Assembly (NCBI GenBank): GCA_963666425.2
Contig: OY762825.2
Span: forward strand, 1,143,478-1,167,477
Length of the DNA: 24,000 nucleotides
DNA from: Bacillota bacterium
GTDB lineage: Bacteria; Bacillota; JAAYKD01
Direction: 5' to 3'
Position 1 is the first letter of the stretch. Every line of letters begins with the position of its first letter. This document shows, piece after piece, positions 11,630-23,990 of this stretch. The translations under genes and the position numbers were made by a program. The notes beneath the pieces were generated by a model. That model saw only the letters and a program-made list of their open reading frames with translations. It had not been told where the DNA came from and made no database searches.

Positions 11630-11686
11630 ATAAAAAATTAAAAAAATCACGGCTCTGCTGATTCCATACAGAAATCAGCAGAGCCG
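11630..11686 (-). terminator. Rho-independent terminator of the hsd operon
   Basis: Perfect 14-bp stem CGGCTCTGCTGATT / AATCAGCAGAGCCG (11650-11663 / 11673-11686) with a 9-nt loop. On the minus strand it is followed by TGATTTTTTTAATTTTTTAT. It lies 70 nt after the hsdR stop. Confidence 0.88.
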
Positions 11687-11755
11687 CTTGGCACATATGT
11701 TTAGGATTGGTTCGGTGATTTAAGGAAAGGGAGATTATCCAAGGTCATTTCACTT

Positions 11756-14700
11756 TTATGCTGCTACTGCATTTGCGTTGACTCGCTCAATCGCTTTTCG
11801 AATTCCTGCCCAAACAGAAAGATTTTTAAACACTTCAACAATGCTGCCGCGATCCGTAAAAGGTGATTCCTGCAAAACAGACAGATCTTTCATCAAACCA
11901 TTATGCACAATGTATTCAACGATCTGGTTGACGAAATAGATTTGTCGGCTGTCCAGATTTGCGGTATTGAGATATTCCGCAAATGCTGTCTTGGCTGCAT
12001 TGCTATCGAGACCGACGATCTCACGTACAAATTCTCCCAAGGGCTTTTGACCACATTCCGTTTCATAATCCTGCTTTGTGCCCACCTCGCTCCAGAGGAT
12101 TTTTTCCAAAGCTTTGACATCTTCTTTTGTAAGCGGAACATTGGTTTTTAGTTTGGCAATGGCAGCATTGTCCTGATGTTTCCGGATATAAAATTCTGCT
12201 TTTGCTTTGTAATTCCTGAGATCATCATTCTCCAAATCGGATTCATGCCAGTCTGTTGATAAAATCTCATCCGCAAAATTGGTGGTGTATCTCATATCGC
12301 TGTGCGGAATATACTTCATCAGCCCGCGCAGATTTTCACGAATATGTTCAAACTCATTGATCCCGGCATTTTCCAGATAATCTGTATGCAAAATTTGATG
12401 AATCAACTCTGCCTGTGCCCTAATCTCGGGAATATTTGCTACACCAGCGACACCGTTGATCCGTTTGAGAAGGTCGCTACGAGCACGAGTGTAATTTTTA
12501 CCGACCAGATAAGCAAGCTCAATTCCATAGATCAGCGCGTCGAAGCGGACGGCGCTTGCTTCATCTTCGTCCGGCAGGATCAACGGGGCCATTTCATTAC
12601 CAACGATCAAGGTATCTTCATAGCAAAATGCATCATAGCTTTTTGGTTCGGAATACTGCTCCACAGACTTCAAATGCTGCTTGATCGCGAAATTTTCACG
12701 GTTCAATTCCTGTGCCTTGCGTACCATGTCGTCTACTAAGCTTTTGCGGAAGGGAATCAATTCTTTCGTCTGGAAAGCAATGTCCTGCAGTTTGAAAACA
12801 ATCTGCATTTTCAATTGATAAATTGCACCCTGCAACGCCAGCATATTGGCTGTAGGCCGCCCTTTATTCATCCGGAAGAATTCAAAGTTGCCGCAGAAAT
12901 CAAAAATATAAAACTTCTGCTTATCTTCTCCATCCAAAAGACCCGGACAGAGACGGGTTCCGCGGCCGATCATCTGCCAGAACTTTGCCTTGCTCATCAC
13001 CTTTTTGAAAAATACGAGGTTCAGAATCTCCGGAATATCAATACCGGTATCCAGCATATCTACCGAAATAGCGATCTGCGGCAGTTTGTTCGGCTCGGAA
13101 AATTCGTCGATAGCACTCTGTGCATACGTCATGTAGTTATCGATAACCTTGGCATAACCGAACAAATTTGGGTACTCCTTACCGAAAATCTCATAAATCT
13201 TTTCGGCATGCAGGTGATTCTTGGCAAAAATGATCGTCTTGCCCAGCTTTTCCCCGTAGTTGATCTTGATTCCATCTGTCATCAGAACCTGTATTACCTG
13301 CCGGATAGTATCCTCATTGAAAATCCACTCATTCAGGGCTGAGGAAGCAATCGATTCCGGCACTTCGCCGTTTTCATCCTCAAAAGTGTCCTCATAAATT
13401 GCCTTGTCTTGCTCGGAAAGATCATCGTAGACGATACCCTGCTCGATGAATTTCAATTTCGTCTCCACAGACAGAAAATCCACCAGATAGCCATCGCTGA
13501 CCGCCTGTGCCAACTCGTAGCCGTAGGTTGGCACACCATTTTCCAACTCGAATATTTCATAGGTGTTTTTTTCGATATCAATTTTTGGTGTTGCAGTAAG
13601 GCCCACCAACGGTGCATCAAAATAAGTGAAAATATCACGGTATTTGTTATAGATGGAGCGGTGTGCCTCGTCACAGATCACCAGATCGAAGTGCCCGCAG
13701 GTGAAAAGCTTGCCCTCGTCATCCTTTACAGAGTCAATACAGTTCATCATCGTCTGATAAGTAGAAAAAACGCAGTGGGCGCTGTAATTGTCTTTTTCCT
13801 CGCAGAGATTGGTGAGAGACAGATCGGGAAGGTAATTGACGAAATTGCGTTTGGCTTGTGTGACCAACGAATTGCGGTCGGCGAGAAACAGGATGTTTTT
13901 AATCCAGCCATGCTGCAGCAGCACGTCGCACAAAGCAATGACCGTTCTCGTCTTGCCGGAACCGGTGGCCATCACCAGCAGCGCCTTGCGGCGATTGCGT
14001 GCGTCAAAGCTGTCGCAAATGGCCTTGATGGCTGCTTCCTCGTAATAGCGCCCGGCGATGTTCTTATTGACCATTACATACGCGAGACGAGTCCGCAATG
14101 ACCGTAAATTGAACAATTTTTCCAGATCACGCTTGGAGTAGATACATGCAACTTTTCGCTCCGGATATAGGTTGTCAACAATACGCGTTTCAAAACCGTT
14201 GGTGAGAAAGACAATCGGGCGACGGTGATATTTCTGTTCTAATAAATCGGCATAAAGTTTTGCTTGCTGGCGGCCCTTGGCAACATCCACGCACGTACGT
14301 TTTGCTTCCACCACCGCAAGCGGTCTTCCATCGTCTCCATAGAGCACATAATCGGCATAACCTATTTCAGACCAGTTTGGCATGCCGGGCAATTCAACTT
14401 CGCTCAGCCAATCATGGCCTTCCGTCCAACCCGCATCCGCCAGCATGGCATCGATATAGATTTTGCGTGTCTTATATTCTGAAAGCTCCAGCGGCTTGGG
14501 CACATAAGTTTGCTGCTGTTCCTCCCGACGGGCTGTCAGCTCTTCTTTCAGCGCTTTGTTTTCGGCGATGAGTGCTTTCAGATCAACCTCCGGTACTTCA
14601 AGAAGAGGAGGTGTAACCATGGCCGGTTCCGTCTGCAGAAGTGCGGCATCAAACTTACCTTCCACGTAATCTTTTCCATAGCAGTAAGCGACAAAATCAA

Positions 14701-15052
14701 GGAAAACATACAGGTTTTCCAGGCACAGGGCTGCTTGCTCAAGTGTTACCTTTTTACCGCTGTGGACGGCGTTATTGCCCATTTTGCGGATGAAATCCAT
14801 GCGCCGCCAAATATCGATGCCCACAACATCATGGAATTCTTCCGCATTCATCAGATTGACCAACGTATCTTGATACGGCATGACAAGGCTGCCGTCCACG
14901 GAATACATCCATTTGACGGCAAACTCCATCGCGCGGCGGCAGTTGATAATACTTGCCTCCACATCAAGTTGCAGGATTCGTTCTGCCGACACCGCTACAT
15001 CCGCAAAGGAGGCAAACTGCGGGTCGGAGTGAAGAAAATCAAAGTTGGTCAT
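11756..15052 (-). CDS. hsdR: Type I restriction enzyme R subunit (HsdR): N-terminal DUF4145/HEPN-like domain, PD-(D/E)xK nuclease, SF2 helicase, EcoEI-R-type C-terminal domain
   Basis: 1098 aa. Nuclease motif ADYVLYGDDGRPLAVVEAKR. Helicase motifs MATGSGKT, ICDEAH, GLTATP and QMIGRGTR. ATG at 15052, 12 nt after the orf176 stop, with GAGGT overlapping that stop. Confidence 0.95.
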   Translation of the reverse strand: MTNFDFLHSDPQFASFADVAVSAERILQLDVEASIINCRRAMEFAVKWMYSVDGSLVMPYQDTLVNLMNAEEFHDVVGIDIWRRMDFIRKMGNNAVHSGKKVTLEQAALCLENLYVFLDFVAYCYGKDYVEGKFDAALLQTEPAMVTPPLLEVPEVDLKALIAENKALKEELTARREEQQQTYVPKPLELSEYKTRKIYIDAMLADAGWTEGHDWLSEVELPGMPNWSEIGYADYVLYGDDGRPLAVVEAKRTCVDVAKGRQQAKLYADLLEQKYHRRPIVFLTNGFETRIVDNLYPERKVACIYSKRDLEKLFNLRSLRTRLAYVMVNKNIAGRYYEEAAIKAICDSFDARNRRKALLVMATGSGKTRTVIALCDVLLQHGWIKNILFLADRNSLVTQAKRNFVNYLPDLSLTNLCEEKDNYSAHCVFSTYQTMMNCIDSVKDDEGKLFTCGHFDLVICDEAHRSIYNKYRDIFTYFDAPLVGLTATPKIDIEKNTYEIFELENGVPTYGYELAQAVSDGYLVDFLSVETKLKFIEQGIVYDDLSEQDKAIYEDTFEDENGEVPESIASSALNEWIFNEDTIRQVIQVLMTDGIKINYGEKLGKTIIFAKNHLHAEKIYEIFGKEYPNLFGYAKVIDNYMTYAQSAIDEFSEPNKLPQIAISVDMLDTGIDIPEILNLVFFKKVMSKAKFWQMIGRGTRLCPGLLDGEDKQKFYIFDFCGNFEFFRMNKGRPTANMLALQGAIYQLKMQIVFKLQDIAFQTKELIPFRKSLVDDMVRKAQELNRENFAIKQHLKSVEQYSEPKSYDAFCYEDTLIVGNEMAPLILPDEDEASAVRFDALIYGIELAYLVGKNYTRARSDLLKRINGVAGVANIPEIRAQAELIHQILHTDYLENAGINEFEHIRENLRGLMKYIPHSDMRYTTNFADEILSTDWHESDLENDDLRNYKAKAEFYIRKHQDNAAIAKLKTNVPLTKEDVKALEKILWSEVGTKQDYETECGQKPLGEFVREIVGLDSNAAKTAFAEYLNTANLDSRQIYFVNQIVEYIVHNGLMKDLSVLQESPFTDRGSIVEVFKNLSVWAGIRKAIERVNANAVAA

Positions 15053-15064
15053 GACAAAGTTACC

Positions 15065-15595
15065 TCAATCTTTCAAGAAAAAATCAGGATTATCGTTAAA
15101 TGCAGTTATTAACCAAGGCTGAGCATTAAATCCGACAATCATTTCCTTGGTGAATGGATCGATATCCGTTATTTGTCCTGGTTGATATATATAACCTATC
15201 TGAGTTAAATATAATGCATTACCATCATTCATATCCAGACGAATTTGTTTATGATCATTCAATAAAAGCTGCCTTATGTATTCTTTTTGTTTATTGTCTA
15301 GAGATTTGAACATCTTCTTAAATGATCTTATGGTTCTACACCGCTTTAGCCGTTTTGAACCAGAAGAAATGAGAATTTGGAGAACAATAATAAGCGTGAG
15401 AAATACACAAAACAAAAACAACACCGAAATACACAACATCCAGTTTTCCGGTATATTGGCAAGATGCAACCTTTGGAGCATATCTTCAGGCATGAACAGT
15501 ATAAAGCTTGACACGATACCAATAGAAACAACAACTGGACTTATTTTTTTCAAATGTTCAAATAACTTATCAAGATGAACATCTATTTTCAACAC
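15065..15595 (-). CDS. Small two-TM membrane protein, SieB (superinfection exclusion B)-like; function unproven
   Basis: 176 aa. Two hydrophobic helices (ISPVVVSIGIVSSFILF; WMLCISVLFLFCVFLTLIIVLQILI) precede a soluble tail (LDNKQKEYIRQLLLND...NALYLTQIGYIY). This layout matches my recollection of the SieB family. Non-ATG start: GTG at 15595 or TTG at 15592, after a strong GGGGAGG. AT-rich. Confidence 0.55.
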   Translation of the reverse strand: MLKIDVHLDKLFEHLKKISPVVVSIGIVSSFILFMPEDMLQRLHLANIPENWMLCISVLFLFCVFLTLIIVLQILISSGSKRLKRCRTIRSFKKMFKSLDNKQKEYIRQLLLNDHKQIRLDMNDGNALYLTQIGYIYQPGQITDIDPFTKEMIVGFNAQPWLITAFNDNPDFFLKD

Positions 15596-15615
15596 AATTG
15601 CCTCCCCAAAACATT

Positions 15616-15678
15616 CTAAATCTGTGATTTCAGTATCATGCGAACTTCAGAATGGATTAAAAAATCAAAATTGGTCAT
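15616..15678 (-). pseudogene. Decayed duplicate of the hsdR 5-prime end (20-codon stub MTNFDFLIHSEVRMILKSQI*)
   Basis: The stub ATGACCAATTTTGATTTTTTAATCCATTCTGAA aligns with the true hsdR start ATGACCAACTTTGATTTTCTT---CACTCCGAC (15052 downward). 18 of the first 21 nt are identical. With a 3-nt indel, the CAY-TCY-GAN codons follow. It has its own AAGGTG RBS. Confidence 0.7.
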
Positions 15679-15696
15679 GTCAGCACCTTGTCAGTA

Positions 15697-16431
15697 TTAG
15701 AAAATGGTTTTTATTACTTGTTCCGTTCCGCTAATTAACTCTTCAACCTCATCCTTATTGGGTTCTCGTTCTTTGCTGTGATCGCACAGATTTCGAATAT
15801 CTCCCAATCTTTGTACTCTTCTCCATTCAACTGTATCGTATACATTATCTTTTAATGCATCATTGAAATCAGTTATTGTTGGATTCTTTTTTTTAGTAAC
15901 AATCTCTCTAGTATGACACACTCCAGAAAAATGCTTTTCTAATACTACTCCACATATTGCACCAGCAGCTCTAAGAAAGCCCATTTTGAGCAGATGCTTT
16001 GCCGTTTCAATTTCCGAGTCGAAAATATCAGCTTGGAGTACTACTTGTATACTGTAAATCTTGCTATCGAATTTATCTAAACATGCTTGCAGCATTTTCA
16101 CCTGTCGAAGCACATTAAGTGCTGCTGTCCACGGTCCATATAAGTCCCTTGTATGATGGATTCCCCGTAATGCATCTGAAATACTGTATGTCCCAAAATT
16201 AATCTCTTTCCGTTTAGGATTAGAATAAAGCAGTATAAAATCTTGAGTACGGTCTGGAATTAGCTGTTTTATAAGAACCAGTGCTTTTGTATACCATTCT
16301 TCATAATTCAAAATAAAAAAGCCAAAATCCTTACACTTAGATTTATCAATTCTTTCAAGCGAATAGTAAAGCTTATCTCCATGATCAATTAACTTCTGGA
16401 TTTCATTTTTTAGCTCGGTATATTCTTTCAT
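15697..16431 (-). CDS. Hypothetical protein with a C-terminal HEPN/DUF4145-like domain carrying a canonical RNxxxH motif
   Basis: 244 aa. The sequence cga aat ctg tgc gat cac = RNLCDH (aa 213-218) was read directly at 15795-15778. The C-terminal about 100 aa align without gaps to HsdR aa 20-120 (WRR at 203-205 vs 82-84; N214/N93; HS 218-219 vs 97-98). The ATG lies 11 nt after the hsdS stop, with GAGGTGAG as RBS. AT-rich. Confidence 0.6.
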   Translation of the reverse strand: MKEYTELKNEIQKLIDHGDKLYYSLERIDKSKCKDFGFFILNYEEWYTKALVLIKQLIPDRTQDFILLYSNPKRKEINFGTYSISDALRGIHHTRDLYGPWTAALNVLRQVKMLQACLDKFDSKIYSIQVVLQADIFDSEIETAKHLLKMGFLRAAGAICGVVLEKHFSGVCHTREIVTKKKNPTITDFNDALKDNVYDTVEWRRVQRLGDIRNLCDHSKEREPNKDEVEELISGTEQVIKTIF

Positions 16432-16442
16432 GCGTTCTCACC

Positions 16443-17606
16443 TCACCCAAAATACTGTTGCATGAGTGCTTTTTTTAGTGTCTCAAGCTTTTCCAGGCTC
16501 ATTTGAATTTCAAGTTTTGATTTGTCGATTTGTTTGACGAAGTCAGAAAATTGCTCTTGTAGTCCCAACGGAGGTAGAATAATCATGTAGTCTTCAATTT
16601 GTGCGCTGCTTACATTTGGTTGAAGCGAATTACCACTCATTCTATCTACATAATCCTTAAAGTCATCAGTTCTACACAGAACTTCAAGAAATATTGGCGT
16701 AATGCCTCTTTTCATTTGAAATCTTCCAACTCGTTGATTCAATAAGCATGGCAAATCTCTGCTTGAAACTTTTGCAATTTTCACTGAATTAAGTGACTTA
16801 ATTATAGGACGAGTCATTGCCATAACTAAATCGCCATCTTGCAATGCAAATTCTTGATACTTTGTGAGATATTCCTGCGGTACAGAATTGACAACGTCCC
16901 AATTAATAAAATCCTTGTTCACATTGCCAATTTGAACGAGTGGAACACCTTCGTCAACAAAAGCCTTACTCATAAAAGCATATCCGCCTTGCAGTCTTGC
17001 ATAATCACCCAACTGAACTACAGGATAATCAAATTGATTATTATTTACCGTACCGAAAATCTCGACAAACCGGGATTTGATGAGGTCTTCCAGTTTAGCA
17101 AGCTGTTGCTTGCGGAGGGAAATGAGATTGATTATTTTTCTAAATGCAGCAGCGATTCTCTTCTGTTCATCCAAAGGTGGAAGTGGTATTTCGATGTTTT
17201 CAACAATACCTTTTGATATTTCTTTGAATGTGGCTCCGCGTCCTAATGAGTTAAGACAATCCGTGTTCCCTTTCAGGAAAAAATACAAATACTCATTAAA
17301 AACACGATCTGAGCAAATTAGGTTTTTGAAGCCTTGATTGCAGCACATTTTGCATCCTGCTATAGCCGTTTTTCCAATAGGAGCGCGGGAAGATAAAATC
17401 ACGGTTCCCGCAGGAAATGGGTGTAGCCCTGTTTTTCTCTTTCCTTCTTCTGTAATATGGCGTGAAGAGTCAAAAATGTAAAACGAATCATCTGATAATT
17501 CAGCGGGCGTAATCCATTTTATATCTCCATCCCAGTATTCATTCATGTTCGTTTTTGGAGTAGAGCCAGATATGACCTTACATACATCCCCCAATTTCGC
17601 CATCAT
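16443..17606 (-). CDS. hsdS: Type I restriction-modification specificity subunit (HsdS), two target-recognition domains
   Basis: 387 aa. Duplicated conserved spacers (LPPLDEQKRIAAAF...LAKLEDLIKSRF and LPPLGLQEQFSDFV...LEKLETLKKALMQQYF). The ATG overlaps the hsdM stop (ATGA). Confidence 0.92.
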   Translation of the reverse strand: MMAKLGDVCKVISGSTPKTNMNEYWDGDIKWITPAELSDDSFYIFDSSRHITEEGKRKTGLHPFPAGTVILSSRAPIGKTAIAGCKMCCNQGFKNLICSDRVFNEYLYFFLKGNTDCLNSLGRGATFKEISKGIVENIEIPLPPLDEQKRIAAAFRKIINLISLRKQQLAKLEDLIKSRFVEIFGTVNNNQFDYPVVQLGDYARLQGGYAFMSKAFVDEGVPLVQIGNVNKDFINWDVVNSVPQEYLTKYQEFALQDGDLVMAMTRPIIKSLNSVKIAKVSSRDLPCLLNQRVGRFQMKRGITPIFLEVLCRTDDFKDYVDRMSGNSLQPNVSSAQIEDYMIILPPLGLQEQFSDFVKQIDKSKLEIQMSLEKLETLKKALMQQYFG

Positions 17607-19102
17607 ACCATCTCCTTCAGTTCTGCCAAGCTCTTAATAATTTCCTTTTCGATCTCATGCAGGTCTGCCATGATTTCCTTCGTTGAGAGGTACTCCGTCT
17701 TAACATAGTCCGTCTTTTTATATTTGTTAATGGAAAGGTCATAATCGTTCCCGACGATTTCAGCTTTCGGCACCAGAAAGGATTTTTCTGTTCTGGCACG
17801 GTCGGCTTCCTCATCCCTGTTTTTAAAACGCTCAATAATGTCGGGAATGTCGTTGTTATCCGGTGTAAGTGTCCGTTTGTCATCTAGGCTCATACCATCA
17901 GCAGTCATATTATAGAACCACACGTTATCCGTGCCGCCATGGCCGGTCTTCGTAAATACTAAAATTCCGGTGGAAACGCCGGCATAAGGCTTGAACACGC
18001 CGGAAGGCATGGAAATGACTGCTTCCAGTCGATTACCCTCAATTAGCTCCTTACGGATAGCCTTATGCGCTGTGGAGGATCCAAACAGCACGCCGTCTGG
18101 TACGATGCAGGCACAGCGACCGCCCACCTTCAACATGCGCAAGAAAAGCGCCAAAAATAGCAGCTCGGTTTTCTTTGTCTTGCAAACTTTCAGAAGGTCA
18201 GTGGAAACCGTATCGGAATCCAAGCTGCCCTTGAACGGTGGATTGGCGAGGATCAGAGAATATCGTTCTCTATCTGGGTTCTGATCGGACAGGCTGTCGC
18301 GGTACTCTATAAACGGATTATCTACGCCATGCGTCATCATGTTCATGGCGCCGATACGAAGCATCGTCCGATCCATGTCGTAGCCATGAAACATGTGGTT
18401 CATGTAGTGGCCTTTTTTTTGCTTGTCGAAGAAAATTTCTTCTTTGTAATGCTCTTTTAGGTATTCAGCAGCGGTCACCAGGAAGCCAGACGTGCCACAG
18501 GCGGGATCGCAGATTACATCGTCCGGTCGCGGTGCAAGCAGTTCCACCATCATACGGATAACGTGACGTGGTGTGCGGAACTGACCGTTCATACCGGAGG
18601 TGGAAATTTTAGAAAGCAGATATTCGTAGACATCGCCACGCACATCCGATTCTTTCATGGCGGACATTTGGCGATAGATTTCATCCAGAGCGTCCACAAT
18701 CTTGGAGAGCATCAGCGGTGTTGGGATTTTGAAAATAGCGTCATCCATATATTTGGAATAGGCGCTTTCTTTGTTCCCATGCAGATTTTTAATGAATGGG
18801 AACACTAGTTCTTGTACGACCGAGTACATTTTACCTGCCGGAAAATCGTGAAACACCGACCATTTGAGCTGGTTGCCGTCTACCCGGCGATCGCCAATCT
18901 GCACCTCATTGGCAAAAATGCTTTCAAAAGAAAGCCCCAGCATAGCACTCTCCTTAGCGCGCAGGTTGTCTGTGTCATCCAAGTCACGGATGAACATGAG
19001 ATAGGTCATCTGCTCCACTACATCCAACGGATTGGTCAGCCCACCGGTCCAGAACATTTCCCAAAGGCTATCGATTCGATTTTTCAGTTCGCCTGTTATC
19101 AT
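17603..19102 (-). CDS. hsdM: Type I restriction-modification N6-adenine DNA methyltransferase (HsdM)
   Basis: 499 aa. HsdM N-terminal domain. AdoMet motif DPACGTSGFL. Catalytic LANPPF. The ATG directly abuts the fic TAA (TAAATG). Confidence 0.95.
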   Translation of the reverse strand: MITGELKNRIDSLWEMFWTGGLTNPLDVVEQMTYLMFIRDLDDTDNLRAKESAMLGLSFESIFANEVQIGDRRVDGNQLKWSVFHDFPAGKMYSVVQELVFPFIKNLHGNKESAYSKYMDDAIFKIPTPLMLSKIVDALDEIYRQMSAMKESDVRGDVYEYLLSKISTSGMNGQFRTPRHVIRMMVELLAPRPDDVICDPACGTSGFLVTAAEYLKEHYKEEIFFDKQKKGHYMNHMFHGYDMDRTMLRIGAMNMMTHGVDNPFIEYRDSLSDQNPDRERYSLILANPPFKGSLDSDTVSTDLLKVCKTKKTELLFLALFLRMLKVGGRCACIVPDGVLFGSSTAHKAIRKELIEGNRLEAVISMPSGVFKPYAGVSTGILVFTKTGHGGTDNVWFYNMTADGMSLDDKRTLTPDNNDIPDIIERFKNRDEEADRARTEKSFLVPKAEIVGNDYDLSINKYKKTDYVKTEYLSTKEIMADLHEIEKEIIKSLAELKEMV

Positions 19103-20161
19103 TTATTCTTTCTCCCTATTCCATGTATAGGAGGCGTAGCGCCCCCCACTGAGCTTAATGATTTCATCGCTTTTCAGCAGGTTATTCAGGGCCCGTTGGA
19201 TGGTAACCTGACTGATGTCCGGGCATTTTTGCATGATTTCTGTTTTGGTGATTTTGCCAAGCGTCCCTTTAATGATCTCCCGAACACGATCCGCTTTGGA
19301 AAGATTACTGGTTGTCAGAAGCTGCATACGGGAAGAAAATTCCCGATATGCCGCAACAATCACGCCTAGCATATATCGCACAAATGGCATATAGTCATTT
19401 TTTTCTTCGTGCCAGCCTTCGGAACTTTGCTGCAGAGTTTCATAATAGGTTTCTCGTGACATCTCGATCAGCTTTTCAATACTGATATATTTGCTAACGT
19501 TATAGCCACCGCGATAGAGTAAAAGCAGTGTCAGAAGACGACTCATGCGGCCGTTGCCATCGTTGAAGGGGTGAATGCAAAGAAAATCCAGAATAAACAC
19601 TGGAATGAGCAGTAACGGATCGTATTCGGCATTTTTGCTGGCTTCTTCCAGCGCAACGCAGAGCTGTTCCATCGCCTCTGTCGTCTCCCACGCTGGCACT
19701 GGTTGGAACCTGATGAACTTATTCCCTTGTGCATCTTCTTCCGCAATCACATTATCGGCGCTTTTATAAGAACCGCCGGTGCTTTTTCCGCTGAATTTAT
19801 AGAGATCGCGGTGCAGCTGCAGGATCATGGACGGTTTTGGTGGGATGAAGTCATGGCTTTCGTGAATCGTGGCAAGCACATCGCGGTAGCCGGCAATTTC
19901 CTCTTCGTTTCTGGTTTTCGGCATTGTTTTATCACTGATAATTTTCTTCAATCGTTCGTTGGAAGTCGAGATGCCTTCGATTTTATTGGACGCCTCGGCA
20001 CTCTGAATTTTCGCGACCTCAACGAGTTGCGTCAATGTGTCGCTTTGAGCTTCAATAAATTGATTCTGCTCTCCCTTGAATTCATGGATTTGCACCAGAA
20101 GCGCAACGGTTTCTGGAGTAAGCAAAGCATGATATATCTTGTCATAATTGTATTTCCGCAT
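19103..20161 (-). CDS. Fic-family protein (predicted AMP-transferase) with an N-terminal inhibitory motif and a C-terminal winged-helix domain
   Basis: 352 aa. Canonical Fic motif HPFNDGNGRMSR. SNKIEG matches the (S/T)xxxE(G/N) inhibitory helix. The C-terminal HTH-like region is ISQVTIQRALNNLLKSDEI. RBS GAGGT lies before the ATG at 20161. Confidence 0.9.
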   Translation of the reverse strand: MRKYNYDKIYHALLTPETVALLVQIHEFKGEQNQFIEAQSDTLTQLVEVAKIQSAEASNKIEGISTSNERLKKIISDKTMPKTRNEEEIAGYRDVLATIHESHDFIPPKPSMILQLHRDLYKFSGKSTGGSYKSADNVIAEEDAQGNKFIRFQPVPAWETTEAMEQLCVALEEASKNAEYDPLLLIPVFILDFLCIHPFNDGNGRMSRLLTLLLLYRGGYNVSKYISIEKLIEMSRETYYETLQQSSEGWHEEKNDYMPFVRYMLGVIVAAYREFSSRMQLLTTSNLSKADRVREIIKGTLGKITKTEIMQKCPDISQVTIQRALNNLLKSDEIIKLSGGRYASYTWNREKE

Positions 20162-20344: not shown

Positions 20345-20735
20345 TTGAGGTTAGCTTCAAGTGATCTGTACACCGTGATTGTTCTGCACCGACTTGAAAA
20401 AGTTCTTCGCAATTTCGCTCTTGCTGTCATAATCCACGGACAAAGAAAAATACCTTTGATTTTTCAATAAAGCCGCTTTTCACTAGCTCGGTTGTCACGA
20501 ATCCGCTCAAGCAGCTCATCAAAGTAGTCGGCACCGAATTCTTTCGGGCTTCGTAGGCGCTCATCATTCAGGACAAAGCTTATCTTCATGTACTAACTGA
20601 GAATGTCATTGGCTCATCTGCAAAGATGAACACCGATGTTGCTGGAACGTAAACAAAGAAAAAATCATATCAAGACTGTAACAATCCGTTTCTCTGGAGA
20701 TCTCATCCCCGGTGGCTTTATCACGCCGGAATATC
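20345..20735 (-). pseudogene. Degraded RhuM-family (virulence protein RhuM-like) gene remnant
   Basis: Minus-strand translation across three frames gives SLDMIFSL, then RSSNIGVHLCR*ANDILS*YMKISFVLNDERLRSPKEFGADYFDELLERIRDNRASEKRLY*KI, then SLSVDYDSKSEIAKNFFKSVQNNHGVQIT*. This follows the RhuM pattern as I recall it (NLDxIISVGYRVxSxxGxxFRxWA...KGFVLxDERL...FGxDYFxELLExIRxIRxSExxxYQKI...SxDYD...FFxxVQNK). It has at least 3 in-frame stops and at least 2 frameshifts, and the C-terminal third is missing. Confidence 0.6.
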
Positions 20736-20834: not shown

Positions 20835-23800
20835 CTATTTAAAAACTAATTTTATGTCATCCAAATTGTAGTATTCAATCCCACCTTTTCTAGCTCTAAT
20901 ACTCGGCGGAATCAGTTCTATCAACTCCTGTCTTGTATGTACGCCCGGTAAAACATAATATGTTCTATCGTAACCTAAAAATAAAATACTCCAACCTTCT
21001 CTAACCCCCTGAACATATGTATCATCTTTCCCAATGTAATCTTTGAGTTTGAGTTCGTCATCTTCCGTAATATCTCTGGGTGCAACATATTCAAACAGAG
21101 CATAGTCTATATATTCTTCTCTCGCTAATCTTATATAGGTGTTCAATTCAAATAAGCTGAAGTAATTCTGAATCTTTTCAACACGTCCAATCAAGCAAAG
21201 CGGTTTTCCAAAACGCTCCTTATTATGTGATGATATACCGATTTTCGGGTTCACAAGAGCTGGCTCAATAATGCCCATTCCATATAACCCGTTTCCGATT
21301 TTTGAGATTATTTTTATCCGTCTCTCGTCTAGAGAATAATTATCTTCCCTTTCTCGCTCTTTTATTTTACTAAATAGCCTCTCAGGCACTACCGGCCACA
21401 AACTAGTAACCAAATCATATTGCTCAAAACGCCCTTCCCATTTATCTGCCTTTAATACATATTGAACATGACGCAATAACGTTCTATCTTCTTTTAGCGC
21501 AACCGATGGCGGGAAAAATAGATTTGACTTAATATTTATGCTTTCGTCCAAAACTCCAATTGCTTCAGCTGCGAACGCTTTTCCAAAAAATAATTGTCTT
21601 GCTACATCATCCAGCTGCCTAATATCAATATTTTTAAATGTTACATCGGGGAGTCTTACTAACTCACTTAGAGAGTTTGTTTTTTGATCGATTAAATTCA
21701 CTTTGTCTAGCTTCATTGAGCCGTACTCTGTAGCTGATAATTGCTGAAGTATATCACCAGAAAATTCCTCAAACTCGTATAATAGAATGTTGATCGTCAG
21801 TTGAGCCTCGGCTGAATCGGCTCCAATCTTTTCCTCTCTTAAATATGCCACTACAACTTCTACGACTTTAATTATTAGTTTATCGACAAGTTTTTTTAGG
21901 ATCTCGGTAAGGTCTTCCGAAAAACCTACTATATTGTTTCGGTCAACAGACAATACGGGCCTTTTTTCTCCAATGAAATTCAATATGACACTAGAGTTCT
22001 GAGACAAACTATACCCTAGTAGTGCATATTTTTTTAAATGCACGGAATTTTCATTTACGACAACCCCGTCGACTAAAATTGTTAGTTGACTAGTTTTCCA
22101 TAAATACCTAGAAAAACTAAAAACATAACGATTTAGTACGGGAATGCCCTTTTGAGGCAAACAAATAAATGTGTGTAGCTGAACACCGTCAAATCCTACA
22201 CAAATTGGTATATCTTTGATAAAATTGCGGCATGTTATAACATCTTTATATTGATTTTCGTTATCATTTTCTAAATTGTATCGCCCAAAAGCTGTTGCAA
22301 ATGCAGCGACATTTGTATTTGGATATTTCCTAAAATCAAAAATTTCATTAAATGGAATAATCGGGTGTGATTTATCGTTTTCGTCGTATACGCAGACTTC
22401 AATATCGGGGTCAGGAATGCCTATTTGCTTGTTCACTTTCCAGAAAAGGCTGCTTTCAAATTCTTTATAGCTTGATTTATCAAATGTTTCATCGTACCTG
22501 CTGTTATTCCCTGCAAAAATAAAATAATACAAATCCTTTGGAATGATACAATTGATTATTTCAGAAGTCTTTCCGTTAAGGAAAATTTTTACTAGTGTAC
22601 CATGTTCGCCTATGCGCTCATTATCAAGTTCGTTGATAGGTATATGATAAAATCGCTCATTAGCCCCTTCTATTACAAAGGACAATGGTATAATAGCATT
22701 TTCATAGTGCTTTGTAGTTATTTCAAGTGCATCACCTAACATAAAGCATGAAAGAATACCTATTCCGAATTGGGATGTTGGGTTTACCGCATTTGACCAA
22801 TTGGCATTTTTCCTAATAAAATCGCGAGATTTATAGTATGAATTGCCAATGTGCAAAAGGTGATTTTTTACAATATCCATCGTCATGCCTGTTCCATTAT
22901 CTAAGCAATAAATATATGTTCGACCATTGCTGTCGGTTGACAATCCAAAGGATATTTTATAATTACTAAATACACTTCTTGTTATGTCGATTGCTTTCAT
23001 ACATTTGCATGCATCGAGCGAGTTTTGGTAAAGTTCTCGCAAACAAAGGTATTCATCTTTATAAAGTTGTGCACCCGCCAAAAGACCGAGAATTTTAGAT
23101 TGCTCCAAGGTAAACTTTGCATCGTTTTCAGGTATAAATATTGATGTATCAGCATCAATTCCTGTTCTATCCGCAGCTATCGCAATTTTAATATCATAGT
23201 TCTCCCGATTAGGTATATCATCATATTCTAATCGCTGTAGAAATTTAAAGTATAGCGCAATCTCATCGTCAACAGAGTCCAAATAATCCTGTAAAAAATA
23301 GTAAGTATCCGGCGATGAACAATATGCTTTAAATTTTATGGTTGTCTTGGAATTGGTATTGCTAAATTCATAATGTGTTTCCTCGAATTTTGACTTCCAA
23401 TGCTTATAACTTACTGGGTCAGTAATTTTCTTTTCGGCAAACAGCGACATGGGTGCTCTATCCGAAGAAAAATGAATAATATCGCCAAGTCTTAACATAA
23501 TTGCTACAAATTGAACATTCACCTTACCAAGAGAATCTATTTCATAGTCAAAATCTAACTTTTTGACATCAACGGCTTCATCCCCATGCGCTTTACAAAC
23601 TTTGGCTAAGACGTTCAGATACTTATCTGCAGTAGATTTTTTTAGCAACGCTCTGAATCTTTTACGCATATTGCCAATAAATTCAACAATACGTTTATTA
23701 TGTGTTGTTCTAATGAAGTCACACCTAATTAGATTGCTATAATTGAGATAATCATAGCTATCTAATTTTTTGTTTCTTAATTGATCTGAAAACCCGTTTC

Positions 23801-23990
23801 GAAATTCTTCATAAGACCGTACACGTTTCGCTAAATCAAGTTGTAGTTCGGCTTCGTTCTCGGGAGCAAAAATAAAACTCTCCACATTGCTGTATTTCAC
23901 ATATATATAGCGTTTATTCTCATCGATAATTTTCTCTATTTCAATTAAAGACTGAACCGGCTTAAAATCGTTCTTAATGCAAGGTTTCAC
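20835..23990 (-). CDS. Large (at least 1051 aa) Hsp90-type GHKL ATPase with an HD-like N-terminal region and a long uncharacterised C-terminal region; the 5-prime end is probably outside the window
   Basis: GHKL motifs were read directly. N-box RELYQNSLDA (aa 318-327, nt 23011-23039). G1 box LDNGTGM (363-369). SQFGIGILS (406-414), which matches the Hsp90-class GQFGVGFYS spacing. LRLGDIIHFSSDR (166-178) resembles the distal helix of HD-domain proteins. The track start is a GTG at the window edge, with no in-frame stop between it and position 24000. Very AT-rich. Confidence 0.8.
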   Translation of the reverse strand: MKPCIKNDFKPVQSLIEIEKIIDENKRYIYVKYSNVESFIFAPENEAELQLDLAKRVRSYEEFRNGFSDQLRNKKLDSYDYLNYSNLIRCDFIRTTHNKRIVEFIGNMRKRFRALLKKSTADKYLNVLAKVCKAHGDEAVDVKKLDFDYEIDSLGKVNVQFVAIMLRLGDIIHFSSDRAPMSLFAEKKITDPVSYKHWKSKFEETHYEFSNTNSKTTIKFKAYCSSPDTYYFLQDYLDSVDDEIALYFKFLQRLEYDDIPNRENYDIKIAIAADRTGIDADTSIFIPENDAKFTLEQSKILGLLAGAQLYKDEYLCLRELYQNSLDACKCMKAIDITRSVFSNYKISFGLSTDSNGRTYIYCLDNGTGMTMDIVKNHLLHIGNSYYKSRDFIRKNANWSNAVNPTSQFGIGILSCFMLGDALEITTKHYENAIIPLSFVIEGANERFYHIPINELDNERIGEHGTLVKIFLNGKTSEIINCIIPKDLYYFIFAGNNSRYDETFDKSSYKEFESSLFWKVNKQIGIPDPDIEVCVYDENDKSHPIIPFNEIFDFRKYPNTNVAAFATAFGRYNLENDNENQYKDVITCRNFIKDIPICVGFDGVQLHTFICLPQKGIPVLNRYVFSFSRYLWKTSQLTILVDGVVVNENSVHLKKYALLGYSLSQNSSVILNFIGEKRPVLSVDRNNIVGFSEDLTEILKKLVDKLIIKVVEVVVAYLREEKIGADSAEAQLTINILLYEFEEFSGDILQQLSATEYGSMKLDKVNLIDQKTNSLSELVRLPDVTFKNIDIRQLDDVARQLFFGKAFAAEAIGVLDESINIKSNLFFPPSVALKEDRTLLRHVQYVLKADKWEGRFEQYDLVTSLWPVVPERLFSKIKEREREDNYSLDERRIKIISKIGNGLYGMGIIEPALVNPKIGISSHNKERFGKPLCLIGRVEKIQNYFSLFELNTYIRLAREEYIDYALFEYVAPRDITEDDELKLKDYIGKDDTYVQGVREGWSILFLGYDRTYYVLPGVHTRQELIELIPPSIRARKGGIEYYNLDDIKLVFK

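Follow-up and report, generated by a model that had tools for sequence, protein, structure and literature searches.

The closest described relatives of the arrangement studied here are genes carried inside restriction-modification (R-M) operons. At least 16 clades of HEPN proteins were linked to R-M systems by Anantharaman et al. (2013; PMC3710099), who proposed an analogy with PrrC and also a three-level defence made up of R-M, HEPN and DOC/Fic components. Genes embedded in type I R-M, BREX, DISARM and Hma loci were found by Payne et al. (2024; bioRxiv 10.1101/2024.01.29.577857) to be enriched for defence, a principle called "guilt by embedding". DarTG2 has been described between hsdS and hsdR, a site termed a potential recombination hotspot (PMC12255303), and TgvAB lies within a type I cluster (PMC11411939); both are proven cases of such embedding. 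On the phage side, SieB of P22 halts macromolecular synthesis when superinfecting relatives are midway through their lytic cycle (PMC10883804), and in the literature searched we found no paper linking SieB-family proteins to type I operons. In this work we analysed a 24,000-nt stretch of a Bacillota genome (GenBank assembly GCA_963666425.2, contig OY762825.2, positions 1,143,478 to 1,167,477; hereafter the window), where a type I R-M operon contains two genes, orf244 and orf176, in its hsdS-hsdR interval, the first encoding a predicted HEPN-domain protein and the second a putative SieB-family membrane protein. The linkage of HEPN proteins to R-M systems and guilt by embedding are already published; a SieB clade bound to type I operons and relics of the hsdR start are the modestly novel elements.

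The operon reads, all on the minus strand, Fic/DOC, hsdM, hsdS, orf244, orf176, hsdR. The initial annotation of the window had proposed orf244 and orf176 as a two-gene cassette and candidate restriction-coupled abortive-infection (Abi) module, and its description of their position was confirmed. Both are genuine open reading frames (ORFs); 11 nt separate hsdS from orf244, with the Shine-Dalgarno-like GAGGTGAG overlapping the hsdS stop codon, and 12 nt separate orf176 from hsdR, with TGAGGTAA overlapping the orf176 stop codon. The domain identities and the defence context behind the Abi proposal also stood, as did the view of the two as accessory, co-oriented genes in a type I operon, relatives of which carry classic Abi genes in the same slot. 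What did not stand is the pairing. In our preferred reading, which we hold with confidence and doubt in about equal measure, orf244 and orf176 are two unrelated, separately acquired single-gene accessory modules, autonomous and of Abi type, in the hsdS-hsdR slot, a known cargo site, of a Fic-hsdM-hsdS-hsdR operon in a gut Clostridia-type genome. Each gene is regarded as an independent rider because the two were acquired separately, because they do not co-occur elsewhere, and because the partners found in the slot are variable.

The separate acquisition can be read from the spacer between the two genes. This spacer is 101 nt long, and its first bases, ATGACCAATTTTGATTTT, copy the hsdR start ATGACCAACTTTGATTTT. 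The relic and the functional start are the two copies of a 22-nt direct repeat, D1 (91% identity, 626-nt spacing), that flanks the orf176 insertion, and the hsdR-start pattern occurs twice in the window versus zero occurrences expected by chance. Decayed hsdR-like sequence may extend as far as about position 15615. The locus with the closest orf244 relative (L092, 89% identical) presents orf244, an 18-nt spacer differing from that of the window at one base, and an intact hsdR starting MTNFDFLQSD (MTNFDFLQSDSQFASF), where the window presents orf244, the same spacer, the decayed hsdR start, orf176 and then the real hsdR. Judged by this comparison, L092 is evidently the empty site for the orf176 insertion, and because of this empty site and of the relic in the window we conclude from the alignments that orf244 was resident first and that the 626-nt orf176 unit came later. 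This unit was inserted at the very 5' end of hsdR, after orf244, with the hsdR start being duplicated and hsdR itself kept intact.

A second, independent case of cargo entry at the hsdR 5' end is seen in the lineage L002-L005, in which the order after hsdS is a SieB gene (50% identity to orf176), a 74-nt relic, a DUF4062 gene and an intact hsdR. The relic (L002:4437-4510, present also in L003-L005) is 84% identical to nt 28-101 of its own hsdR. When 56 loci were searched by blastn for hsdR-start relics, only this lineage was positive besides the short relic of the window, and relics are claimed for two lineages in total. We infer that incoming cargo is added at the very beginning of hsdR, at its 5' end, and either carries an hsdR start with it or restores one, perhaps by single-crossover integration of a circular intermediate with hsdR-5' homology, or perhaps by a homologous crossover within hsdR on the right paired with an illegitimate junction on the left. 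The relics are a molecular trace of how layered operons were assembled. In slot, orientation, variability of the cargo and the guilt-by-embedding argument itself, orf244 and orf176 resemble DarTG2, TgvAB and the HEC/PDC candidates described by Payne et al. (2024), but the protein families differ and the insertion history is visible here as hsdR 5' relics.

Elsewhere the two genes do not travel together. Of about 88 orf244-family loci fetched, some 20 of them distinct and type I-embedded, none had a SieB-like gene, and no orf244 homologue was found at about 45-50 SieB-like loci, where the SieB gene is often alone; each gene has many partners, unrelated to one another. An obligate two-gene Abi system, in which an RNase and a membrane effector move and work as a unit, would fit the adjacency, common orientation and AT-richness of orf244 and orf176, and it would recall the SieB-family genes that adjoin cytosolic Abi genes elsewhere (L116, L118, L119, and plasmids of Enterococcus hirae and Shewanella). 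Given the different times of acquisition and the lack of co-occurrence, we nevertheless consider such a system highly improbable.

In those adjacency cases, the SieB-family gene stands beside AbiU2, a HEPN protein, in L119, beside AbiH in L116 and L118 and on the E. hirae plasmid (L157), and beside an "Abi family protein" gene on the Shewanella plasmid pSBAL11702 (L156). This hints either at chance clustering in defence islands or at SieB-like proteins working with variable Abi partners.

The neighbourhoods of the orf244 homologues are equally varied. Homologues 57-89% identical lie between hsdS and hsdR in the operon family of the window (type I-embedded loci L092, L008-L011, L013-L016, L018, L019, L022, L094, L097/L098 and L099/L100), and the gene that follows is hsdR directly, AbiH, Abi_alpha, or an unassigned 278-aa gene. 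Most of the wider family is found outside type I operons. A close homologue lies beside a recombinase and a helix-turn-helix gene in L095/L096 and after a Type ISP enzyme in L024, and relatives adjoin a C5 methylase too. Distant relatives have as neighbours defence ATPases, nucleases, AbiV, AbiJ, Abi_C, integrases and housekeeping genes, with no conserved partner, and some lie inside other type I families (L035, L086, L091) in which HsdR is without a DUF4145 N-terminus. Because close and distant homologues sit in such heterogeneous contexts, we regard orf244 as a gene that stands on its own and is drawn to R-M loci repeatedly, though not of necessity. The hsdS-hsdR interval of this one type I operon family is an exchange site for Abi-type cargo in gut Clostridia. 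An obligatory heterodimer of HEPN and DUF4145 domains acting as a guard was considered and excluded, since the absence of DUF4145 from HsdR in L035, L086 and L091 means that it leaves the embedding there unexplained.

Another neighbour was met in two metagenome-assembled genomes of Eubacteriales (L021 and L023), where the orf244 homologue comes directly after a gene for a Schlafen group 3/DUF2075-type helicase (L021:8127-10004, L023:8130-9983), overlapping its end in L021 and following it after 17 nt in L023. This suggests a Schlafen-type helicase as a different recurrent partner of orf244 outside type I operons.

The orf244 family comprises 2,429 proteins at E<=0.001 (clustered at 90% identity), and relatives occur in 312 GTDB species of many phyla. 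The exact RNLCDH motif pointed out by the initial annotation corresponds to R213..H218 (15795..15778, minus strand), an Rx4H HEPN motif. R213, N214 and H218 are invariant in alignments of 48 close homologues (A1) and of 63 distant ones from many phyla (A10), E165 and other polar positions are likewise invariant in both, and conservation extends over both halves of the protein. The AlphaFold2 (AF2) model (pLDDT 88.9) is all-helical with two domains, the C-terminal helices being placed at 153-174, 186-193, 200-217 and 226-243. When the expected HEPN fold was checked on this model with Foldseek against the PDB, 17 of the 18 top matches were HEPN proteins (probability 0.87-1.0, target TM-score 0.52-0.70), among them TM0613, HepT/SO_3166, ST0689, AF_0298, TT1696, MntA-HepT and 4nqf (the entries include 1o3u, 5yep, 1wol, 2hsb, 1ufb and 4nqf), with AbiV lower in the list. 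HEPN-superfamily Pfam models were matched by 21 of the 63 distant relatives (HEPN, PF05168, E<=0.01, 13; RiboL-PSP, 3; DUF4145, 3; ApeA, 1; Swt1, 1), and in tblastn searches plasmid-encoded proteins of Acinetobacter and Serratia with a DUF4145 or HEPN annotation were 29-32% identical to orf244. For orf244 itself there was no match to PF13643 (DUF4145), the comparison of its profile with PDB sequences gave no match, and NCBIfam and PHROGs yielded nothing useful. On the strength of the model and its structural neighbours, the C-terminal half of orf244 is very probably a HEPN domain, of a clade captured by no curated model. An active HEPN enzyme is favoured because the catalytic-type R, N and H are invariant across phyla, and this motif suggests that orf244 would act as an RNase. 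A close kinship of this domain with the N-terminal DUF4145 of HsdR was dropped, a profile comparison with hhalign having been not significant.

Like the R-M-linked HEPN proteins (AbiJ, AbiU2, Abi2/AbiD/F, DUF4145-like, ApeA), orf244 is encoded in an R-M operon as a stand-alone HEPN protein, and it has the Rx4-6H motif. The published arrangement of R-M, HEPN and DOC is matched by the operon of the window with its orf244 and Fic/DOC genes, and AbiJ joins an N-terminal non-HEPN part to a C-terminal HEPN domain as orf244 does. Unlike these families, orf244 is above threshold in no Pfam HEPN model, and its N-terminal domain has no named relative. It differs from HEPN-MNT toxin-antitoxin pairs too, since a minimal nucleotidyltransferase antitoxin gene was absent beside orf244 and among the neighbours of 70 homologues. 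The comparison with PrrC of the EcoprrI type IC operon is closer in position: in both cases a gene for a HEPN-class nuclease lies co-oriented inside a type I hsd operon, which makes orf244 a candidate second line of defence. However, the N-terminal ABC-ATPase domain of PrrC is absent from the 244-aa orf244, in which Pfam and NCBIfam find no ATPase domain and the N-terminal domain is all-helical in the AF2 model. A further difference is that orf244 is type I-embedded in the window and at about 20 distinct homologue loci, while most of its family lies elsewhere, and because of this a PrrC-like coupling of orf244 to the Hsd complex is disfavoured.

The SieB identity and layout suggested for orf176 both held on closer analysis. 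The protein matches Pfam SieB (PF14163) over aa 24-146 with 65.5 bits (cut-off 26) and the PHROG SieB weakly (E=0.0011), and with hhalign a profile of 41 clade members aligned to the annotated P22 SieB at E=2.6e-4 over 118 columns, the identity of orf176 to P22 SieB being about 25% over the aligned part. Its best match among predicted viral structures was a 195-aa protein of the P22 N-operon region (probability 1.0, E=0.012). The AF2 model (pLDDT 79.6) has a pair of membrane helices, together with a long helix and a small C-terminal domain of alpha/beta type; this layout of two transmembrane (TM) helices and a C-terminal domain is kept in 41 relatives, and the C-terminal domain and both termini are predicted to be cytosolic. 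By sequence and architecture, then, orf176 is best taken as a SieB-family inner-membrane protein, sharing with SieB of P22 and lambda its size, the two N-terminal TM helices and the cytosolic tail. Its context is not that of a prophage: those SieB genes belong to a prophage immunity region, and orf176 is found instead in a chromosomal type I R-M operon. P22 SieB also has an Esc-type internal start, with esc beginning 24 codons inside sieB, whereas the alignment of the orf176 clade, which is tied to type I operons, contains no conserved internal Met at the equivalent position, although this is a weak test. The SieB-like family as a whole reached 2,254 clusters (50% identity, E<=0.001) in a full HMMER scan. 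Close relatives of orf176 were found neither in viral contigs, plasmids and phages nor in the first metagenome pattern scan, and a word-indexed protein search returned just four.

Metagenomes were scanned with a sister clade that has 25-34% identity to orf176; of the 55 loci obtained, 45 had a SieB-like ORF that could be called. Type I embedding, defined as hsdS at most three genes upstream and/or hsdR at most three genes downstream, was found at 36 of the 45; both genes were present at 18, and the SieB-like gene immediately followed hsdS in 18 cases and immediately preceded hsdR in 20. With clustering at 70%, 11 of 15 clusters were embedded, orf176 of the window being counted as one cluster, and the remaining four were on contigs shorter than 1.6 kb or had hsdM immediately downstream. 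At several loci SieB is the sole embedded gene, and otherwise its companions in the slot are GmrSD-HNH, an integrase, AbiU2, AAA_21+HNH, SLFN+HATPase_c_4, NERD and AbiH. Every embedded locus comes from a single homologous operon family, and a single peptide pattern was used to recover them all, so that the association could partly reflect shared ancestry. Nevertheless, because the clade is almost always type I-embedded, a functional coupling to the restriction enzyme is plausible on this distribution, and the near-exclusive embedding makes Hsd dependence more credible for orf176 than for orf244.

Truncated SieB-like remnants (ORFs of 67-90 aa) were also observed just upstream of hsdR in L132-L137, L141-L143 and L146-L149, mostly just after a NERD-domain gene, and they indicate that SieB cargo decays and is turned over there.

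These distributions bear on the idea of a PrrC-like guardian, in which one or both proteins, most plausibly orf176, would be held inactive by HsdMSR and would fire when a phage anti-restriction factor disables restriction. The proportion of SieB-like loci and clusters in type I context, the loci where SieB is the only embedded gene, and the persistence of the association among proteins just 25-34% identical to orf176 are all consistent with it, and PrrC itself, a proven guardian, is likewise almost exclusively type I-embedded (Payne et al., bioRxiv 10.1101/2024.01.29.577857). For orf244, relatives have entered at least four type I families besides adjoining the Type ISP enzyme and the C5 methylase, and such a role was proposed for R-M-linked HEPN proteins by Anantharaman et al. 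(2013; PMC3710099). We nevertheless consider the guardian possible but unlikely, in view of the many orf244-family members without a type I operon or a conserved partner, the lack in orf244 of the ATPase regulatory domain of PrrC, and the lack of sequence similarity between the orf244 HEPN domain and the HsdR N-terminal DUF4145. On the SieB side, ancestry or recombination within the single operon family could explain the embedding, and other SieB-family clades occur on phages and plasmids without R-M (SPbeta yopH, Akkermansia phage, Burkholderia, Shewanella, Enterococcus plasmids).

A wider proposal, which we put forward as speculation and rather doubtful, would have the deep SieB-like clade as a dedicated companion of type I enzymes, embedded like PrrC, and as a guardian acting at the membrane, killing the cell or arresting it once restriction is blocked. 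The slot would then grow by recurrent insertion at the hsdR 5' end, each event regenerating the hsdR start and leaving relics (cassette accretion). If this were true, the type I-bound SieB clade would be a new membrane-level guardian, and accretion in the slot would build layered immunity within one operon. The near-exclusive embedding of the clade in any case offers a direct test case for R-M guardians other than PrrC and PARIS.

It is also conceivable, though quite improbable in our judgement, that neither protein is an immunity effector, orf176 being a membrane tether or regulator of the type I enzyme and orf244 a non-catalytic HEPN regulator, or either gene being an addiction module that stabilises the island. 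The tight embedding of the SieB-like clade, often directly before hsdR, would suit a tether or regulator, as would the likeness of the orf176 C-terminal domain to winged-helix DNA-binding regulators, but this likeness is weak (E>=0.07, TM ~0.3). HEPN domains can be non-catalytic ligand-binding modules (PMC3710099), but the catalytic-type residues of orf244 are invariant across phyla. The truncated SieB relics show that the gene is dispensable; on the other hand, the founding SieB is an exclusion protein and the other cargo of the slot is all of defence type (AbiH, Abi_alpha, AbiU2, GmrSD-HNH, NERD, AAA+HNH).

Returning to the two genes as independent, autonomous riders, the conserved N-terminal domain of orf244 would be a sensor or autoinhibitor fused to the HEPN RNase domain. 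The protein would stay latent until a phage cue relieves the inhibition and would then cleave RNA and stop translation in the manner of abortive infection. By homology to P22 SieB, orf176 may shut down macromolecular synthesis or membrane function part-way through the lytic cycle. Because both genes are co-oriented with the R-M genes, with no convincing internal terminator between the genes of the operon, orf244 could add an RNA-level and orf176 a membrane-level layer behind DNA restriction; toxicity, triggering by phage and whether either protein needs the Hsd complex are likewise matters of inference.

Several points weigh against this reading. A search with PADLOC v2 (PADLOC-DB v2.0.0, including the PDC candidates) recovered the Fic gene as SoFic, but no family matched orf244 or orf176 at E<=1, so that their putative defence function is argued from context and homology. 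The Foldseek E-values behind the HEPN match of orf244 are weak (0.04-2), though the list is consistent, and the Pfam HEPN model (PF05168) gives 18.5 bits (E=0.0024) where the curated cut-off is 22. The mechanism behind the duplication of the hsdR start is a reconstruction. Finally, members of the sampled SieB-like clade hardly ever occur without a type I operon around them, and such near-exclusive embedding makes full autonomy of orf176 less likely and favours the guardian. The locus nominates two large families as anti-phage candidates that are absent from PADLOC v2, one of more than 2,400 proteins (orf244) and one of more than 2,200 clusters (SieB-like).

Table 1. Features of the type I R-M operon and of the two embedded genes (positions in the window)
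Feature	Position	Strand	Remarks
Fic/DOC-family gene	20161..19103	minus	Pfam Fic E=5e-14; PADLOC SoFic E=1.8e-39
hsdM, type I methyltransferase subunit	19102..17603	minus	4-nt overlap with hsdS
hsdS, specificity subunit, two target-recognition domains	17606..16443	minus	Pfam Methylase_S E=1.7e-46, two stretches
orf244 (244 aa, ATG)	16431..15697	minus	between hsdS and hsdR
hsdR translation-start relic tgacATGACCAATTTTGATTTT	15682..15661	minus	left copy of 22-nt direct repeat D1
orf176 (176 aa, GTG)	15595..15065	minus	between orf244 and hsdR
TM1 of orf176 (aa 18-36)	15544..15488	minus	hydropathy
TM2 of orf176 (aa 52-76)	15442..15368	minus	hydropathy; basic stretch after it
Functional hsdR start	15056..15035	minus	right copy of 22-nt direct repeat D1
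hsdR, type I restriction subunit, EcoAI/EcoEI-like family	15052..11756	minus	NCBIfam type I endonuclease models
Strong intrinsic terminator, 17-bp stem + T-run	11687..11649	minus	closes operon after hsdR

The operon is headed by the Fic/DOC gene, as are the homologous operons, and the stop codon of this gene abuts the hsdM start. The hsdM gene has 88.7% nucleotide identity to that of L092 and about 70% to the hsdM of many loci annotated as HsdM_N/N6_Mtase, and homologues of hsdR are annotated as DUF4145 (N-terminal, HEPN-class), ResIII and EcoEI_R_C. In a scan for promoters and terminators, sites were no more frequent than in shuffled sequence, save for the terminator after hsdR, and an Rfam scan of the window gave no RNA family. 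The low G+C content that had been suspected for the pair was borne out by computation. Positions 15065-16431 have a G+C of 0.341 as a whole (orf176 0.328, orf244 0.348), compared with 0.46-0.48 for the core genes (hsdR 0.464, hsdM 0.477, Fic 0.458), and only 5 of the 453 sliding windows of equal length over the 24 kb are as AT-rich. The low-G+C block takes in hsdS as well (0.383), and the next upstream gene (23990..20835) is comparably AT-rich (0.349).

This upstream gene (20835-23990, minus strand) encodes a protein of 1,051 aa in which an HD-CE domain is combined with a GHKL ATPase (HATPase_c_3). It had no PADLOC match and a weak NCBIfam similarity to the restriction enzymes BbrUII and HgiDII, and it looks like another horizontally acquired defence-type gene adjoining the operon. 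Between it and the Fic gene, at 20357-20589 on the minus strand, are decayed fragments of a RhuM-family gene (Pfam Virulence_RhuM, E=1.5e-12 and 1.8e-5, in two short frames of different registers). In R-M islands, DOC/Fic is known to be accompanied by RhuM. Because of the SoFic match, the decayed rhuM and the AT-rich HD-CE/GHKL neighbour, we consider the region to be a defence island.

Variation is not confined to the hsdS-hsdR interval. The hsdM-hsdS junction is a second variable slot in L002-L007, L008-L011, L014, L016, L019 and L099, where the cargo includes SLFN_AlbA_2, small multi-TM proteins and unassigned genes of 153-320 aa; the window has nothing in this slot, hsdM and hsdS overlapping each other by 4 nt. 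The L092 operon is about 89% identical to that of the window through hsdM and again from the hsdS 3' end onward. The body of hsdS (16534-17609) has no nucleotide similarity to L092 by blastn and is thus unrelated in otherwise near-identical operons; we therefore conclude that the specificity domains have been swapped.

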